Below are positions 1,647 through 6,913 of a stretch of DNA of 32,000 bases, one piece after another. A model generated the notes under the pieces. It saw only the letters and a list, made by a program, of their open reading frames with translations, was not told where the DNA came from and searched no databases. Position 1 is the stretch's first letter. Every line of letters begins with the position of its first letter. Location: the NCBI GenBank assembly GCA_964640155.1, contig CAZXEQ010000002.1:330001-362000 (forward strand). Direction: 5' to 3'. The position numbers and the translations under genes were made by a program. This DNA is from an uncultured bacterium (GTDB lineage Bacteria; Auribacterota; JACPWU01).

Positions 1647-3875
1647 ATGCCTCAAAAAATTATTGTTGTGGGTGGGGTTGCTGGAGGAGCAAGTGCTGCT
1701 GCAAAGGCCAGACGTGTCGATGAACATGCTGAGATTATTATTTTTGAAAGAGGGAGGTATGTCTCTTTTGCAAATTGTGGTTTGCCTTATTATGTGGGGG
1801 GCGCAATCTCCAAGAGAGAGGCTCTTCTACTTCAAACTCCAGAAAGTTTTTGGAAACGTTTCAGAGTTAAAGTGTATATCCTCCAGGAAGTTTTAAGTGT
1901 GGATCGTCCCAATAAAAAAGTGAAAGTTAAAGATCTTGCAACATCTCATGTCTTAGATTTTTCTTATGATAAATTGATTCTTGCGACTGGAGCAGGTGCG
2001 ATCATTCCCCCACTTCCAGGAATTCAAGCCTACAATATTTTTACCGTCAAGACAGTTCCAGATTCTGACAAAATCAAAGAATATATCTCGAAATATCATC
2101 CAAAGCGTGTTGTTGTTGTGGGAGGAGGTTTTATTGGACTTGAATCCGCAGAGGCTTTAAAAAATCTAGGTTTACAAGTGACTTTAGTAGAGGCATTGCC
2201 ACAGATTCTCCCTCCTTTTGATCCGGATATGGCTCGCTTTGTTGCCGATCAGATGACCAATGCAGGGATTGATTTGGTATTGGGAGATGGGATCAAGTCT
2301 TTTCAGGGAGCAGCATTAGCCAATGAAGTTGAATTACAGAGTGGGCGAAAACTTCCCATGGATTTTGCCATTCTTTCGATTGGTGTTCGGCCAGAATTAA
2401 AATTGGCACAGGACGCAGGTTTGATGATCGGTCATTCAGGCGGGATCTCTGTAAATGAATATCAACAGACATCGGATCCCAATATTTATGCAGCGGGAGA
2501 TGCTGTTGAGATTGTGCATCTTGTGACAGGAGAAAAAACAAGAATTCCTCTTGCAGGTCCGGCCAATAAACAAGGGCGTGTGGCTGGAGCTAATGCGGCC
2601 GGAGGACATCTTGTTTTCCCTGGAGCTGTAGGAACGGCAATTGTTGAATGTATGGGAATTACAGCTGCAAAAACAGGCCTTTCGGAAAGGGAAGCAGAAA
2701 AAAATGGATTGAAATTTTATTCGTCTCAAACCCATTCTTTGGATCATGCAGGTTATTATCCTGGAAGTAGTCTGCTCCATATGAAGATGATTGTAGAAAT
2801 AGAAACAGGGCGTTTGCTAGGGGCCCAGGTGATAGGTGAAAAAGGAGTGGATAAACGCATTGATGTATTAGCGACAGCTCTTTTTTGTAAGATGAAAGTC
2901 AGCGACGTTGAAAATTTAGATTTGGCTTATGCTCCTCAATTCTCTTCAGCTAAAGACCCAGTGATTATGGCGGGTTTTGTTGCATCCAATATTCAACGTG
3001 CCGAGTTCAAAGGAATCACTTGTCAAGCTCTTCAAGAAAAACTTCAGAAAAACAAAGATATTCAAATTGTGGATGTTCGCACTCGCGAAGAAGTTGCAAG
3101 TGGCTCGATACCTCAAGCTATTCTTATCCCCCTGGATGAATTGCGAGAATGTTTGGATAAATTAAATCCGGAAAAAGAAACAGTGGTTTATTGTAAAGTA
3201 GGATTAAGAGGATATTTAGCTGCTAGAATATTGGAGCAAAGTGGATTTCATCACGTATTTAATTTGACAGGAGGACTTTTGTCCTGTCCGAGTCATGAAA
3301 AAGCTTTTCATGACATCGGGGGGAAAAATCCTGTTTCGAGTGTGAACGTTCATGAATTAAAAGCAATGGTTGAAAACAAGTCATGCCTTGTTATTGATGT
3401 GAGAGAAAAAGATGAGTTTAGATATGAATTCATTCCTCAGACAAAAAATATTCCTTTAAGTCAGCTGAACTTGGAGAAGAATCAGTTGTCCAAGGAAACT
3501 CCTGTTTATGTGATGTGTCAAGCCGGAGCACGTTCCCGCGTGGCTGTTGATCAGTTGAGATCTTGGGGTTTTACAAGTCCCATTCTTGTCGAAGGAGGGC
3601 TTCAGGCTTGGAAAAATGCAGGTTTTTCGATCAAAAAAGTAGGGCCTCTTCCTCTCATGCGCCAGGTCCAAATTGTTGCAGGAGTATTGATTTTGATAGG
3701 CTCTTTATTACCAGGATTTAAAGGTATTGCAATTTTTGTAGGGGCTGGGCTTGTTTTTGCAGGAGCAAGTGGCTGGTGCGGTATGGCCATGTTGTTACAA
3801 AAGATGCCTTGGAATCAGCGTTTTTCGAAAAACATAAGCTGTGATACCCAGAACTCTCCTTGTTCAAAGAATTAA
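1647..3875 (+). CDS. CoA-disulfide reductase / persulfide reductase-like flavoprotein fused to two rhodanese domains and a DUF2892 (YgaP-like) membrane tail
   Basis: FAD motif VVGGVAGGASAA, redox cysteine in SFANCGLPYY, and second Rossmann motif VVVVGGGFIGLE. Two rhodanese active-site loops follow (CKVGLRG and CQAGARS). The hydrophobic C-terminus ends in GWCGMAMLL. The RBS AAAGGAG ends 6 nt before the ATG. Confidence 0.8.
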   Translation: MPQKIIVVGGVAGGASAAAKARRVDEHAEIIIFERGRYVSFANCGLPYYVGGAISKREALLLQTPESFWKRFRVKVYILQEVLSVDRPNKKVKVKDLATSHVLDFSYDKLILATGAGAIIPPLPGIQAYNIFTVKTVPDSDKIKEYISKYHPKRVVVVGGGFIGLESAEALKNLGLQVTLVEALPQILPPFDPDMARFVADQMTNAGIDLVLGDGIKSFQGAALANEVELQSGRKLPMDFAILSIGVRPELKLAQDAGLMIGHSGGISVNEYQQTSDPNIYAAGDAVEIVHLVTGEKTRIPLAGPANKQGRVAGANAAGGHLVFPGAVGTAIVECMGITAAKTGLSEREAEKNGLKFYSSQTHSLDHAGYYPGSSLLHMKMIVEIETGRLLGAQVIGEKGVDKRIDVLATALFCKMKVSDVENLDLAYAPQFSSAKDPVIMAGFVASNIQRAEFKGITCQALQEKLQKNKDIQIVDVRTREEVASGSIPQAILIPLDELRECLDKLNPEKETVVYCKVGLRGYLAARILEQSGFHHVFNLTGGLLSCPSHEKAFHDIGGKNPVSSVNVHELKAMVENKSCLVIDVREKDEFRYEFIPQTKNIPLSQLNLEKNQLSKETPVYVMCQAGARSRVAVDQLRSWGFTSPILVEGGLQAWKNAGFSIKKVGPLPLMRQVQIVAGVLILIGSLLPGFKGIAIFVGAGLVFAGASGWCGMAMLLQKMPWNQRFSKNISCDTQNSPCSKN

Positions 3876-3949: not shown

Positions 3950-4924
3950 ATGACCATCCCTCAAAAATTCTCTCAAGAAAAACTTAGCTCTCTTCTTCAA
4001 AATGCTTTCAATAAGAGAAAGCGGTTGTTAAATATTACAAATGCAATCCGATTGGTGAATGGACAGGGAGATGGTTTAAAGGGATTGGTGATTGATCGAT
4101 ATCATTCTCATTACATGGTTCAGGTTTATGATGATCAATGGGCCTCACGTTTGGAAGAGATAAAAAAGATTATTTTGGATGAAGAACATCCTGAGTTTTT
4201 AATCTTTAAAGAAACCTCCTCAGAAAAATCAGATCAAAATAGTTTTTATCGGGACTTAACATTTATGCAAGCAAGTTCTAAAACCATTGTTGCTGAAAAT
4301 GGTCTAAAATTTGAGGTTGATCTTGATGATGGCATAAATGCAGGCCTTTTTTTAGACATGCGTGCGAATCGTCAAAAAATACGAGAGATTGTAAAAGGAA
4401 AAGAAGTCCTTAATTGTTTTGCCTATACTTGTTCTTTTGGAGTTTATGCTCGTGCAGGAGGTGCCCTCAGAGTTGTGAATGTAGATATCAGTCAAAAAGC
4501 TCTCGACAAAGGGAAAAAGAATTATGAATTAAATCATCTTTCTCTGTCTGAAAACGAATTTGTAAAAATGGAGACGATAGAATATTTGGAAAGAGCCATC
4601 ATTAAAAAAAATGTATTTGATGTTGTCATTATTGATCCTCCTTCTTTTGCAAGATATGATGGGAAAGTCTTTTCTGTAAGAGAGAAAATGGGACGATTGA
4701 TCGAATTTGCAATGAGGATTCTGAAGCCCTCAGGATATTTGTTAATCGCAACGAATTTTTCAGAATTTTCTCTTACGATGCTTGAAAATGAGATAAAAGA
4801 TAGACTGAGATTTCTGGGGAAAAAGATAAAACAGGTGGATGTTTTAGGACAAGACAGTGATTTCCGTGGAAGTGGAACCATGAAGGAAAGTTATTTGGCT
4901 GCAGTTCTCATAAATTTAGTATGA
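3950..4924 (+). CDS. class I SAM-dependent RNA methyltransferase, RlmI/RlmK-like
   Basis: This is a 324-aa ORF. It has the SAM-binding region LNCFAYTCSFGVYA and the catalytic-type motif VVIIDPPSF, as in PF10672-type rRNA m5C methyltransferases. Confidence 0.6.
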   Translation: MTIPQKFSQEKLSSLLQNAFNKRKRLLNITNAIRLVNGQGDGLKGLVIDRYHSHYMVQVYDDQWASRLEEIKKIILDEEHPEFLIFKETSSEKSDQNSFYRDLTFMQASSKTIVAENGLKFEVDLDDGINAGLFLDMRANRQKIREIVKGKEVLNCFAYTCSFGVYARAGGALRVVNVDISQKALDKGKKNYELNHLSLSENEFVKMETIEYLERAIIKKNVFDVVIIDPPSFARYDGKVFSVREKMGRLIEFAMRILKPSGYLLIATNFSEFSLTMLENEIKDRLRFLGKKIKQVDVLGQDSDFRGSGTMKESYLAAVLINLV

Positions 4925-5018
4925 GATGAAACATTTTGATAGAATAATGGGCTTTAGAGGGGTGTAATTATTAGACGGGTTTTTTGATCTTTAGAATACG
5001 ATAGATGAGGTTTTTTTA

Positions 5019-5105
5019 GGAAGGGTGGCTGAGTGGTTGAAAGCGCGGGTCTCGAAAATCCGTTTCCGAGCAATCGGAACGTGGGTTCGAATCCCACCCC
5101 TTCCG
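5019..5105 (+). tRNA. tRNA-Ser (anticodon CGA)
   Basis: Hand-folded cloverleaf. Acceptor GGAAGGG/CCCTTCC. Anticodon stem CGGGT/ATCCG with loop CTCGAAA. Long variable arm TTCCGA-GCAA-TCGGAA. T arm GTGGG-TTCGAAT-CCCAC. Discriminator G. No CCA is encoded. Confidence 0.9.
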
Positions 5106-5128
5106 ATTCTAAAATTTTTTGAATATAT

Positions 5129-5239
5129 GGTAGGGATTCGAAGGGTACCCGAGCGCGTCCTGTGGACGATGAAGCGAGGGACCCCGGCTCCGGAGGAACG
5201 AATGAAATGAGTGGGGTAGGAGGAATCCCACCCCTTCCG
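5129..5239 (+). repeat. tRNA-linked element, copy A (ends with a 17-nt duplicate of the tRNA-Ser(CGA) 3' end)
   Basis: GAATCCCACCCCTTCCG at 5223-5239 is identical to 5089-5105 inside the tRNA. The 5' end GGGATTCGAAGGG (5132-) is shared with copies B and C. Its GGGATTC is the reverse complement of the element's 3' GAATCCC. Confidence 0.6.
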
Positions 5240-5385
5240 TCAGACTACGCTTCTGGGGGGACTTTGTCTGGCAGTGCCAGGCATGTAATCTTTTAATTTA
5301 AGAAGTAGGTGAGAGGGATCTATTAACTAAGTTATTCAAGTTGTGTTAAGATGTCCGCTAAACATTTAGTTTAAAGGAGGTTATT

Positions 5386-5860: not shown

Positions 5861-5934
5861 GCGCCCGTAGCTCAGCTGGATAGAGCACTTGCCTACGAAG
5901 CAAGGGGCCACAGGTTCAAATCCTGTCGGGCGCA
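5861..5934 (+). tRNA. tRNA-Arg (anticodon ACG)
   Basis: Acceptor GCGCCCG/CGGGCGC. D arm GCTC-AGCTGGATA-GAGC. Anticodon stem CTTGC/GCAAG with loop CTACGAA. T arm ACAGG-TTCAAAT-CCTGT. Discriminator A. Confidence 0.9.
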
Positions 5935-5974
5935 CGAATTCACGAGTGCAATAATTACTTGAGTCATTAACGGC

Positions 5975-6065
5975 AGGATTTGAAGGGAGGGCCGGGTGGC
6001 CGACTTGTAGGTCGAAGACCGGAAGGCACCAAATCCTCTCTCCGGAGACGGGCATGCTGTCGGGC
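5975..6065 (+). repeat. tRNA-linked element, copy B
   Basis: It shares AGGATTTGAAGGGAGGGCCGGGTGGCCGAC with copy C. The internal AAATCCTCTCTCCG resembles the tRNA-Ser(GCU) 3' end. CTGTCGGGC (6057-6065) repeats 5923-5931 of tRNA-Arg. The ends AGGATTTG and CAAATCCT are complementary. Confidence 0.5.
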
Positions 6066-6077
6066 CCCAAACTTTAT

Positions 6078-6569
6078 ATGAAGTGTGAATGTATGATACA
6101 AGAGACTCCTATTGATGAAAAAGATATAAAGTATATGACTGAAGCTTTGAAAGAAGCTCAGTATGCTTTTGATGATGGAGAAACACCTGTAGGAGCTTGT
6201 ATTGTGTATGAAGGGAAAATTATTGCACGCTCTCATAATCAAGTGGAGCTTTTAAGAGATTCTACGGCTCATGCTGAGATGATTGCCATGACTCAAGCTG
6301 CCGATTTTCTGAATAACTGGCGATTGTTAAATTGTACACTTTATGTGACAAAAGAGCCTTGTTTGATGTGCACAGGTGCGATTTTGCTTTCAAGAATTCC
6401 TCGGCTTGTTTTTGGTGCTTTTGATGTGAGAAATAGGGGATTAAGAGATTTAATTCATCCAGGTTATGAACCAGAAATGAAACAATTAAATATAGTGCAG
6501 GGAGTTTTAGAAGCAGATTGTCAATTTCTTTTGAAAGAATTTTTTAAGAAGGCTAGAGAAAAATCATAG
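6078..6569 (+). CDS. tadA: tRNA-specific adenosine deaminase
   Basis: Deaminase zinc motifs HAEMIA and PCLMCTGA, with TadA-like size and the context GETPVGACIV. The track ORF starts at 6054 inside repeat B. ATG 6078 or 6093 is the more plausible start. Confidence 0.8.
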   Translation: MKCECMIQETPIDEKDIKYMTEALKEAQYAFDDGETPVGACIVYEGKIIARSHNQVELLRDSTAHAEMIAMTQAADFLNNWRLLNCTLYVTKEPCLMCTGAILLSRIPRLVFGAFDVRNRGLRDLIHPGYEPEMKQLNIVQGVLEADCQFLLKEFFKKAREKS

Positions 6570-6623: not shown

Positions 6624-6712
6624 GGAGAGGTGGCTGAGTGGCCTAAAGCGACGGCTTGCTAAGCCGTTGTACTGTTAATTCAGTACCGGGGGTTCGAATC
6701 CCCCCCTCTCCG
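6624..6712 (+). tRNA. tRNA-Ser (anticodon GCT)
   Basis: Acceptor GGAGAGG/CCTCTCC. Anticodon stem ACGGC/GCCGT with loop TTGCTAA. Long variable arm GTACTG-TTAATT-CAGTAC. T arm GGGGG-TTCGAAT-CCCCC. Discriminator G. Confidence 0.9.
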
Positions 6713-6913
6713 AAGTTTATTGGTAGCTTTAAAGTTAGCGGAAAGCAGCTTGAGCAAGAGGTCCATGTCGGTTATTGGGATTCGAAGGGAGGCCTGACAT
6801 AGCATAATGCAAATCATGCACTGCATGATTTGCGACTGTTAGGAGGGCCGGGTGGCCGACCGGAGTGAGTGTAACGAACGTAGGCGCCGAATCCCCCCCT
6901 CTCCGAAGTTTAT
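6713..6913 (+). repeat. tRNA-linked element, copy C (bounded by a 26-nt direct repeat of the tRNA-Ser(GCU) 3' end plus 8 flanking nt)
   Basis: CGAATCCCCCCCTCTCCGAAGTTTAT occurs at 6695-6720 and again at 6888-6913. The conserved core GGGATTCGAAGGGAGG starts at 6777, and GGAGGGCCGGGTGGCCGAC is at 6842-6860. An extra perfect 11-bp hairpin lies at 6809-6833. Confidence 0.65.

Follow-up and report, generated by a model that had tools for sequence, protein, structure and literature searches.

We examined a 32,000-nucleotide stretch of an uncultured Auribacterota bacterium (contig CAZXEQ010000002.1; the window) in which all three tRNA genes are followed by the same layout: a spacer, a segment antisense to the T-loop and T-stem of the tRNA, a structured core, and a further copy of the tRNA's own 3' end that begins at position 56/57. 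On balance, we consider it probable, though far from assured, that these elements (E1, E2, and E3) belong to a widespread family of small (~45-280 bp) non-autonomous mobile elements that encode a folded RNA and lie directly behind tRNA genes. The elements have a common architecture, a covarying three-way junction, a target-specific closing helix (P1), a fixed inner edge at position 56/57, and a variable outer edge. They occur in multiple copies, are polymorphic for presence and replaced by other classes in close relatives, and have their newer units on the tRNA-proximal side; no protein gene linked to them was found in the loci fetched for comparison. These loci carry L-numbers below, with relatives taken around homologues of tadA and analysed by script.

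Three neighbouring tRNA genes share one layout

The first-pass annotation of the window had noticed an exact 17-nt copy of the tRNA 3' end behind tRNA-Ser(CGA). This was confirmed: GAATCCCACCCCTTCCG occurs at 5089-5105 and 5223-5239, has no other match with up to two mismatches, and was recovered in none of 100 shuffles. The annotation had also recognised GGGATTC (5133-5139) as the reverse complement of GAATCCC (5223-5229), and these two strands form P1, which is supported by covariation. A search for copies beside other tRNAs revealed what it had missed, namely the same arrangement behind tRNA-Arg(ACG) (E2) and tRNA-Ser(GCT) (E3). The motif GGATTYGAARG occurs three times in the 32 kb, only at E1, E2, and E3, and GGGATTCGAAGGG stands at 6777 in E3 and likewise at 5133 in E1. 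E3 is bounded by an exact 26-nt repeat comprising the tRNA 3' end and 8 nt of flank (6695-6720 and 6888-6913) and folds with a z-score of -4.76. In E2, the antisense is followed by a 19-nt block, AGGATTTGAAGGG, that is identical in E3 (5986-6004 and 6842-6860). The first 12 nt of the E1 leader are found after the distal repeat in L002, and the leader is therefore counted as part of the element.

The core forms a covarying three-way junction

Alignment of 11 elements of the E1 core class (type A) with RNAalifold yielded a three-way junction made of P1 (7 bp), GAA, P2, NGG, and P3 (4 bp), with P3 running straight into the 3' strand of P1. Compensatory changes were present in 16 of the 22 pairs. 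These include GGGU/ACCC to GCCA/UGGC in P2 of L158, CGUCC/GGACG to CAUCC/GGAUG in the apical hairpin of L033, and all four P3 pairs (CUCC/GGAG, CUGC/GCAG, CCGC/GCGG, and UUUC/GAAA). In E1, P3 surrounds the conserved purine-rich segments GGAGGAACGAA ... GAGTGGGGTA. The minimum free energy structure of E1 as a single sequence is the same fold.

A type A covariance model applied to the 32 kb recovered E1 (99.6 bits), E3 (E = 7e-4), and E2 (E = 0.15), with no other match. Over 96 other loci, it recovered 33 elements of several classes. In their alignment, 96% of paired cells can pair, compared to 77% after shuffling, and the covariation score is 0.362 compared to 0.107 (none of 500 shuffles reached 0.362; slid controls gave at most 0.094); because this alignment was fitted to the model, both numbers lean towards the structure. 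Covariation of P1 with the tRNA was seen in type B elements.

In 65 of 73 cores, the more stable fold belongs to the sense strand (mean difference 5.3 kcal/mol, p = 2.6e-12), which points to an RNA made in the direction of the tRNA; a function on the opposite strand was rejected on this ground. A promoter-like site (4921-4948, consensus match only) precedes tRNA-Ser(CGA), and a consensus scan of the window placed none directly before E1, E2, or E3. The terminator-like hairpin downstream of E1 is a possible end of a transcription unit holding tRNA-Ser and E1. Many loci contain a terminator-like hairpin in the leader.

These results bear on the earlier proposal of a tRNA-like small RNA co-transcribed with the tRNA. 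A structured RNA in tRNA orientation agrees with the covariation, the strand asymmetry, and the promoter/terminator layout, but its fold is a three-way junction and not a mimic of tRNA. The acceptor-like pairing of GAAGGG with CCCTTC is present in the sequence and is not kept in L033, where a type A element lies behind tRNA-Ser(GCT): this element retains GAAGGG while its copy ends in CCCTCTCC, so the pairing fails. The T-stem-like pairing of GTGGG with CCCAC is likewise lost there (GCGGA opposite CCCCC). We thus found no support for a tRNA-like acceptor/T-arm with an adjoining D-arm; the covarying fold assigns GAA to a junction and pairs GGGT (5143-5146) with ACCC (5181-5184). Neither ARAGORN nor the Rfam tRNA model (RF00005) detected a tRNA in 5106-5239, 5936-6090, or 6713-6913. 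We rejected a tRNA, pseudo-tRNA, or tRNA-Sec in 5133-5239, for which there was no detector call and no conserved pairing.

Two recurring features of the cores were also observed. The apical loops of P2 are very often C-UGUG-G or C-GGUG-G (e.g., window 5156-5168, L023, L077, L097, L133), and their presence in core classes that otherwise differ suggests a common protein or tertiary contact. In one core class (L043, L051, L086, L090, L116, L118, L133, L147), the internal loop AGUGAAUGA ... UCAGAGCC is conserved and is reminiscent of a kink-turn or box C/D-like motif.

Antisense and borders follow the adjacent tRNA

Every antisense closes with ...GAA, which is complementary to T54 and T55; the next base is G or A and not the C that would complement G53. 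In 75 of 85 cases, the antisense exceeds the 9 nt that the search pattern itself imposes, and in L052 it attains 23 nt. Five elements with unusual T-loops, found pattern-free on type B or C cores, are matched as well: L080 Gly (antisense GGGGTTCGAA, T-loop TTCGAACCCC), L080 Lys (AGGGTTTGAA, TTCAAACCCT), L135 Lys (AGGGCTCGAA, TTCGAGCCCT), L042 Met (GAGGAGTCGAA, TTCGACTCCTC), and L144 Met (GTGGGAATTGAA, TTCAATTCCCAC). T-loops that are non-palindromic (L080 Lys) exclude a sense copy of the 5' half of the T-arm and establish a true antisense.

On its left side, the copy has a fixed edge, C56/R57, in dozens of loci. At the right edge, strict identity most often stops exactly at the encoded end of the tRNA, giving copies of 20 nt where CCA is encoded (11 of 37) and 17 nt where it is not (10 of 44). 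Longer repeats, of up to 83 nt, can take in not only the terminator-like spacer but the antisense too. They give rise to tandem arrays arranged as [copy-spacer-antisense]-core1-[copy-spacer-antisense]-core2-copy in L052, L074, L090, L125, L151, and L080-Gly. In L068, a second element is bordered by a duplicated, already degenerate copy together with 25 nt or more of local flank. Such duplication of flank past the tRNA is also seen in L041, L059, and L097 and favours a duplication made at the insertion site. Among CCA-less genes, 4 of 44 have a distal copy with CCA (L039, L077, L098, L119), plus L159; by chance, about one would be expected. The reverse difference occurs in 7 of 37 and also in L002.

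Some distal copies are interrupted. That of E2 reads CAAATCCT, CTCTCCGGAGACGGGC, ATgCTGTCGGGC, with ATCCT/ATGCT flanking both sides of the insert. The copy in L159 reads GAATCC, TAACCAGCCGGGGCAGTATGGCTGG, CCCCTCTCCGCCA, and the copy in L049 reads AAATCC, TTGTCAGCCTCGGGCTGGC, CACCCTCTCCGCCA. These small hairpin inserts directly after RAATCC look like a second insertion hot spot at position 62|63.

Two accounts of mobility speak directly to these borders. In the first, the elements would be self-targeting and RNA-based: the core RNA would pair through its antisense with the T-loop region of the tRNA gene or of the (pre-)tRNA and become joined at 56|57 to the 3' fragment of the tRNA, and the chimera would be copied back into the genome 3' of the tRNA gene. 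Hints in this direction are the single fixed start nucleotide, the stop at the encoded tRNA end, the strand-specific fold, the CCA at CCA-less genes, and some duplications that appear to run through a terminator. Both the stop and the occasional CCA can also be explained by an element-borne 3' end that must restore the gene. We hold this account to be unlikely; if true, it would describe a protein-less, programmable bacterial system resembling retro-insertion or reverse splicing.

The second account posits mini-elements that carry only an attachment site (attP) and parasitise the tyrosine integrases of resident tRNA-targeting prophages or islands. A circle consisting of core, tRNA 3' end, spacer, and antisense would recombine at the T-loop as a phage attP does; taken strictly, this is the miniature integrative element suggested in the first-pass annotation. 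A repeat running from the T-loop exactly to the encoded end of the tRNA is a typical attachment-site identity block; copies that differ in CCA (L002, L039, L077, L098, L119, L159) and newer elements on the proximal side, as in tandem island accretion, would fit too. However, the same core class at many tRNAs would need many different integrases, integrases are rare nearby, and no inverted core site matching the T-stem lies upstream of the distal copy. Cores of down to 44 bp are too small for double-stranded circles. The local flank duplicated beyond the tRNA, including beside the degenerate distal copy, and the RNA-type strand asymmetry also argue against this account, which we regard as quite improbable.

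Close relatives differ in core class and in empty sites

Relatives differ at the same tRNA loci in element class or by lacking an element. The methyltransferase at 3950-4924 is encoded identically on three public contigs, one of them in a Candidatus Auribacterota metagenome-assembled genome (PVC group). In the strain of L002 and L003, which shares this identical protein, the same tRNA-Ser(CGA) carries a different class: the tRNA, with encoded CCA, is followed by a hairpin spacer, GAGTGGATTTGAAAGCC, another core ending in GTGACC, AAATCCCACCCCTTCCG, and then ATTCTAAAATTT, which is the sequence directly 3' of tRNA-Ser(CGA) in the window. T-loop base 57 is A in both L002 copies and G in both window copies, and the antisense tracks this base (GGATTTGAA compared to GGATTCGAA). 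In this strain, the gene for a 126-aa membrane protein is followed (L002, 4522-5568) by one for a PMT_2-type glycosyltransferase where the window has tRNA-Arg, E2, and tadA. Gene order in L002 and L003 differs past the 126-aa open reading frame (ORF), and synteny therefore breaks beside the tRNA cluster. One tadA locus of the same sample (L157) is only 83% identical.

We distinguished three core classes in the tadA-anchored loci. Type A (GGGATTCGAAGGGTACCCGAGCGC...) lies behind tRNA-Ser(CGA) in E1 and L158 and behind tRNA-Ser(GCT) in L033. Type B (...GGCCGGGTGGCCGACCGGAG...GGCGCC, then the copy) comprises E3 and E2 and lies behind tRNA-Arg in L033 and behind both tRNA-Arg and tRNA-Ser(GCT) in L034. 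Type C (...GGGGTCG...GTGACC, then the copy) lies behind tRNA-Ser(CGA) in L002 and L034 and behind tRNA-Ser(GCT) in L159. For all three, the 3' copy always fits the adjacent tRNA and not the core class. Type B was found behind Ser, Arg, Gly, and Lys tRNAs, and L080 holds five similar type B scaffolds behind four different tRNAs, indicating spread within one genome.

The first-pass annotation had also raised fossil attL/attR sites, here read as those of a large island or prophage deleted to about 110 bp, and, as a fallback, a decayed tandem duplicate of tRNA-Ser. Direct repeats of a tRNA 3' end are the usual scar of integration (PMC9897764 and general knowledge). Nevertheless, three neighbouring tRNAs share homologous internal sequence, and the core is ~80% conserved, with compensatory changes, at different tRNAs of genomes whose tadA proteins are ~70% identical. 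The same core classes lie behind different tRNAs, each with its own copy, the boundary falls at 56/57 in dozens of loci, and only 2 of 62 nearest downstream genes in the fetched loci encode integrases. The duplicate was excluded by a core that lacks homology to tRNA and shows conservation, with covariation, in several phyla, and we consider this pair of explanations extremely improbable.

Only 10 of the 17 tRNAs in the tadA-anchored loci carry an element. Empty sites were found in L157, where a tRNA-Arg identical to that of the window lies 62 nt from tadA, and in L158 (Arg, Ser-GCT), L159 (Arg), and L035 (both tRNAs). L158 and L034 have genes that are 85-90% identical, and all three of their tRNAs differ in element state. 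A tRNA-Arg(TCG) common to L080 and L135 is filled in the former and empty in the latter. In L114 and L134, the tRNA, spacer type, and antisense are the same and the cores belong to different classes, which points to exchange of cores. In both L002 and L034, a remnant of a type A leader follows the distal copy of a type C element, indicating that the newer element is tRNA-proximal and the older one displaced and decaying. This multi-copy status, presence and absence in relatives (L157, L158, L159, L135), and swapping of classes place the elements closest to the earlier suggestion of a miniature non-autonomous element, although not one that is demonstrably integrative in the integrase sense. One further element, in L112 (~2131-2232, minus strand), has a distal copy (GAATCCCACACCCTCCGCCA) that mismatches the adjacent tRNA (GAATCCCTCCTTCTCCGCCA) and fits the 3' end behind the L077 tRNA; it may have arisen by recombination or through a fresh move from one tRNA locus to another.

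The tadA gene (6093-6569), which encodes the deaminase that edits A34 of tRNA-Arg(ACG), is directly downstream of this tRNA, and the space between the two is occupied by E2 in the window. In L157 and L159, tRNA-Arg and tadA are separated by a short, element-free interval.

The same data bear on whether the elements could instead be cis-acting RNAs in the tRNA trailer that serve the host. The antisense would pair either with the 3' part of its own tRNA, causing misfolding or masking, or with the downstream copy, forming P1 and freeing the tRNA; a ligand or protein at the three-way junction would thereby tune tRNA maturation, and the elements would have spread by duplication rather than transposition. 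The strong covariation, invariant junction nucleotides, and conserved purine-rich internal loops are in keeping with such a role, as are the sense-strand bias, a terminator-like site after E1 with no promoter-like site of its own, and an antisense that stays matched to the tRNA copy. There is a parallel in Xanthomonas sX4 (RF02223), whose model likewise spans a tRNA-Ser and a trailer that pairs, in its downstream part, as an antisense of the 3' strand of the tRNA. By sequencing, sX4 measured 156 nt, with a northern band of 280-300 nt (PMC3300014), and its model gave sub-threshold matches over tRNA and spacer at several of our loci, all below the gathering score and leaving the core uncovered. 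Against a host role stand the patchiness among close relatives and common empty sites, the different classes at the same tRNA in near-identical strains, the decaying distal copies, and the terminator-like hairpins often found between tRNA and element. Many unrelated core classes would, moreover, need to share a single function. We therefore judge a host-serving RNA to be rather unlikely.

Elements occur behind many tRNAs in diverse bacteria

Scans with the pattern GTTCRAATCC, a gap of 36-78 nt, and then GGATTYGARGGG returned several clear relatives in viral contigs, e.g., L023 between two tRNA-Ser genes, and at least 120 stretches in a metagenome collection. Among the matches listed, 80 of 121 have a copy of the adjacent tRNA's 3' end (up to two mismatches in 16 nt) located 44-236 nt past the motif. 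A motif-independent scan of the fetched loci (1.09 Mb) identified a copy behind 83 of 211 tRNAs, compared to 7 in upstream and antisense controls. The isotypes with a copy were Ser (34), Tyr (8), Gln (8), Arg (6), Met (5), Lys (5), and others.

Judged by neighbouring proteins, the hosts include Candidatus Omnitrophota (L041, L080), Candidatus Yonathbacteria (L039), and the source of a human gut contig (L105), in addition to Auribacterota. The GC content of element-bearing loci ranges from 0.32 to 0.64. There were no matches to type A or type B cores in viral contigs, and BLAST searches with one element locus (phage records) and one core (plasmid records) gave tRNA matches only or none. In one viral contig (L019, 11380-11600), only the 3' part of a tRNA-Tyr is present, beginning at the anticodon stem; behind it come a terminator hairpin and then an antisense-plus-core-like sequence running into an ORF, which may be either an element or coding sequence.

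Features and gene neighbourhood of the window

The genes around the three tRNAs are ordinary and include those for a CoA-disulfide-reductase-like protein, an S-adenosylmethionine (SAM) methyltransferase, tadA, dnaX, ftsH, and others; no integrase, transposase, or reverse transcriptase is present among the neighbouring genes in the window. A 61-aa ORF (5025-5210) overlapping tRNA-Ser and E1 is almost certainly spurious.

Table 1. Positions of the tRNA genes, elements, and element parts in the window.
Feature	Positions	Strand	Remarks
tRNA-Ser(CGA)	5019-5105	+	ARAGORN; Rfam tRNA, 60 bits; no encoded CCA
First repeat copy (X1)	5089-5105	+	Last 17 nt of tRNA-Ser(CGA), tRNA positions 57-73
E1 leader/spacer	5106-5132	+	Type A, ATTCTAAAATTTTTTGAATATATGGTA; conserved with type A elements of L033 and L158
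E1 antisense	5133-5142	+	GGGATTCGAA; complement of tRNA T-loop and 3' T-stem, positions 54-63
E1 P1, 5' strand	5133-5139	+	Followed by GAA (5140-5142), the invariant junction J1/2
E1 P2	5143-5184	+	Pairs 5143-5146/5181-5184, 5148-5150/5178-5180, 5153-5154/5174-5175
E1 P2 tandem G-A/A-G			Between the 5148-5150/5178-5180 and 5153-5154/5174-5175 pairs
E1 P2 apical hairpin	5156-5160/5164-5168		Loop UGU
E1 J2/3	5185-5187	+	CGG
E1 P3	5188-5191 with 5219-5222	+	CTCC with GGAG; element part 5185-5222
Second copy of tRNA 3' end (X2)	5223-5239	+	5223-5229, P1 3' strand; 5230-5239, acceptor 3' strand as tail
Terminator-like hairpin with T-rich tail	5265-5293 (hairpin 5265-5283)	+	3' of E1; consensus scan only
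tRNA-Arg(ACG)	5861-5935	+	Target of E2; ARAGORN, Rfam
Element E2	5971-6065	+	Type B, shortened form; covariance model match as given above
E2 antisense	5971-5984	+	CGGCAGGATTTGAA; Arg-specific, antisense to T-loop and T-stem of its own tRNA
E2 P1	5975-5982 with 6030-6037	+	
E2 core segment	5986-6004	+	GGAGGGCCGGGTGGCCGAC
E2 3' copy, split	6030-6037 and 6054-6065	+	CAAATCCT and ATgCTGTCGGGC; 16-nt palindromic insert 6038-6053 between them
tRNA-Ser(GCT)	6624-6712	+	Target of E3; ARAGORN, Rfam
Element E3	6713-6913	+	Type B; spacer 6713-6776; core 6785-6887, including a perfect hairpin 6809-6833
E3 P1	6777-6784 with 6888-6895	+	GGGATTCG with CGAATCCC

Comparison with known RNA families and mobile elements

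We compared the window and 21 other loci with Rfam 15; only tRNA reached its gathering score, and the remaining matches, up to E = 10, were at chance level. Several RNA families were considered individually and rejected. For standard or permuted transfer-messenger RNA (tmRNA; RF00023/RF04321), the only match was one of 13.6 bits to the permuted form at 5079-5141, against a gathering score of 47, and ARAGORN reported no tmRNA. Signal recognition particle (SRP) RNA came into question since tadA, SRP RNA, and dnaX are linked in Firmicutes; there was neither an Rfam match nor a GGAA/AGCA motif. Hepatitis delta virus-like, hammerhead, and other ribozymes had unfit junction lengths and no Rfam match. 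A homing CRISPR RNA of a type V-K CRISPR-associated transposon or a TnpB omega RNA was rejected for want of an effector gene nearby and because P1 engages the guide: this helix takes up the initial 7-13 nt of the 3' copy, whereas a TnpB/Cas12-type guide is free. An integron attC-like site at G|TT was rejected as the antisense does not fit RYYYAAC. Full-text literature searches retrieved no description of such elements.

Integrative elements that target tRNA or tmRNA genes through tyrosine integrases resemble the elements described here in their 3'-end repeat starting in the T-loop, the intact tRNA gene, and the outward displacement of older units. In contrast, our elements span 45-280 bp, lack an integrase or any other gene, place one core class at many tRNAs, and have a covarying RNA-type three-way junction with a target-matched antisense. 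No longer, gene-carrying versions and no distant third copy enclosing genes were found in the fetched loci.

MITEs (miniature inverted-repeat transposable elements), palindrome-associated transposable elements (PATEs, derived from IS200/IS605), and repetitive extragenic palindrome doublets forming hairpins (REPINs) are likewise small, non-coding, hairpin-rich, multi-copy, and intergenic, with inverted and direct repeats at their borders. In the present elements, by contrast, both kinds of repeat consist of sequence from the target tRNA and vary from one tRNA to the next. Unlike MITEs, they own no terminal inverted repeats, and the duplication of 17-83 bp has one fixed and one variable (outer) edge. 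IS200/IS605-type insertion leaves no target duplication; here, a duplication or element-borne copy is present. IS91, likewise a HUH-type element, targets GTTC, and tRNA positions 53-56 read GTTC. No parent insertion sequence was found: a related autonomous one with a transposase was absent from the fetched loci and from the results of one phage and one plasmid record query.

Group II introns (with their exon- and intron-binding sequences, EBS/IBS), IS110 bridge RNAs, and TnpB omega RNAs similarly combine a structured RNA with a site-complementary segment and a guide-like part that varies by copy. Our elements have no linked protein gene or Rfam match, a far smaller core, and a 3' copy partly sequestered in P1. 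CRISPR spacer integration and casposons (Cas1-type) also insert at a fixed "leader" side, duplicate an adjacent palindromic repeat, and add new units proximally; casposons target tRNA 3' ends. They differ in that no cas1 is nearby here, the duplication varies in length, and the inserts are conserved structured sequences and not captured foreign DNA. Lastly, the tRNA-like domain of tmRNA, including permuted tmRNA, shares the GGAUUCGA(A/C)GGG motif and a 3' end identical to a tRNA T-arm/acceptor strand, but our elements lack an acceptor stem, T-arm, or tag reading frame and occur in several copies per genome.

A model for mobility behind tRNA genes

Under the mobile-element reading, the element would be transcribed in the tRNA direction, probably by read-through, and its antisense would serve as target recognition of the conserved T-loop region, such that any tRNA gene could be a target. 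Insertion would leave the upstream tRNA gene complete, since its 3' segment is duplicated, and the element should therefore be cheap for its host. New elements would enter on the tRNA-proximal side, with older ones pushed outward to decay. Cores would spread within a genome and be swapped between loci through the conserved, T-loop-derived borders, while the mobilising enzyme would act in trans.

Several points weigh against this model. Neither a trans-acting enzyme nor an autonomous relative was found in the fetched loci. The model does not account for the way in which a core gains an antisense and a 3' copy that are both suited to a new tRNA. At differences between the two copies within P1, the antisense fits the tRNA copy (14 of 16 positions) and not the distal copy, so P1 is not obviously kept by selection after insertion. 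In several loci, a terminator-like hairpin separates the tRNA from the element, which counters simple read-through. Tandem arrays can also arise from unequal crossing-over, and the metagenome sample was picked with a motif that forces GGATTYGARGGG.

Should the elements prove to be host RNAs, they would constitute a widespread, unannotated family of structured tRNA-trailer RNAs, in several classes, in candidate phyla and gut bacteria. If they are mobile, they would represent a new class in the bacterial mobilome: a very small, gene-less kind of site-specific element that leaves an essential gene intact and whose target helix is rewritten for each tRNA. This would explain many of the "partial tRNA" fragments in genome annotation and would point to a machinery supplied in trans, or to a reaction carried out by RNA, with cutting or copying at position 56/57 of the tRNA.

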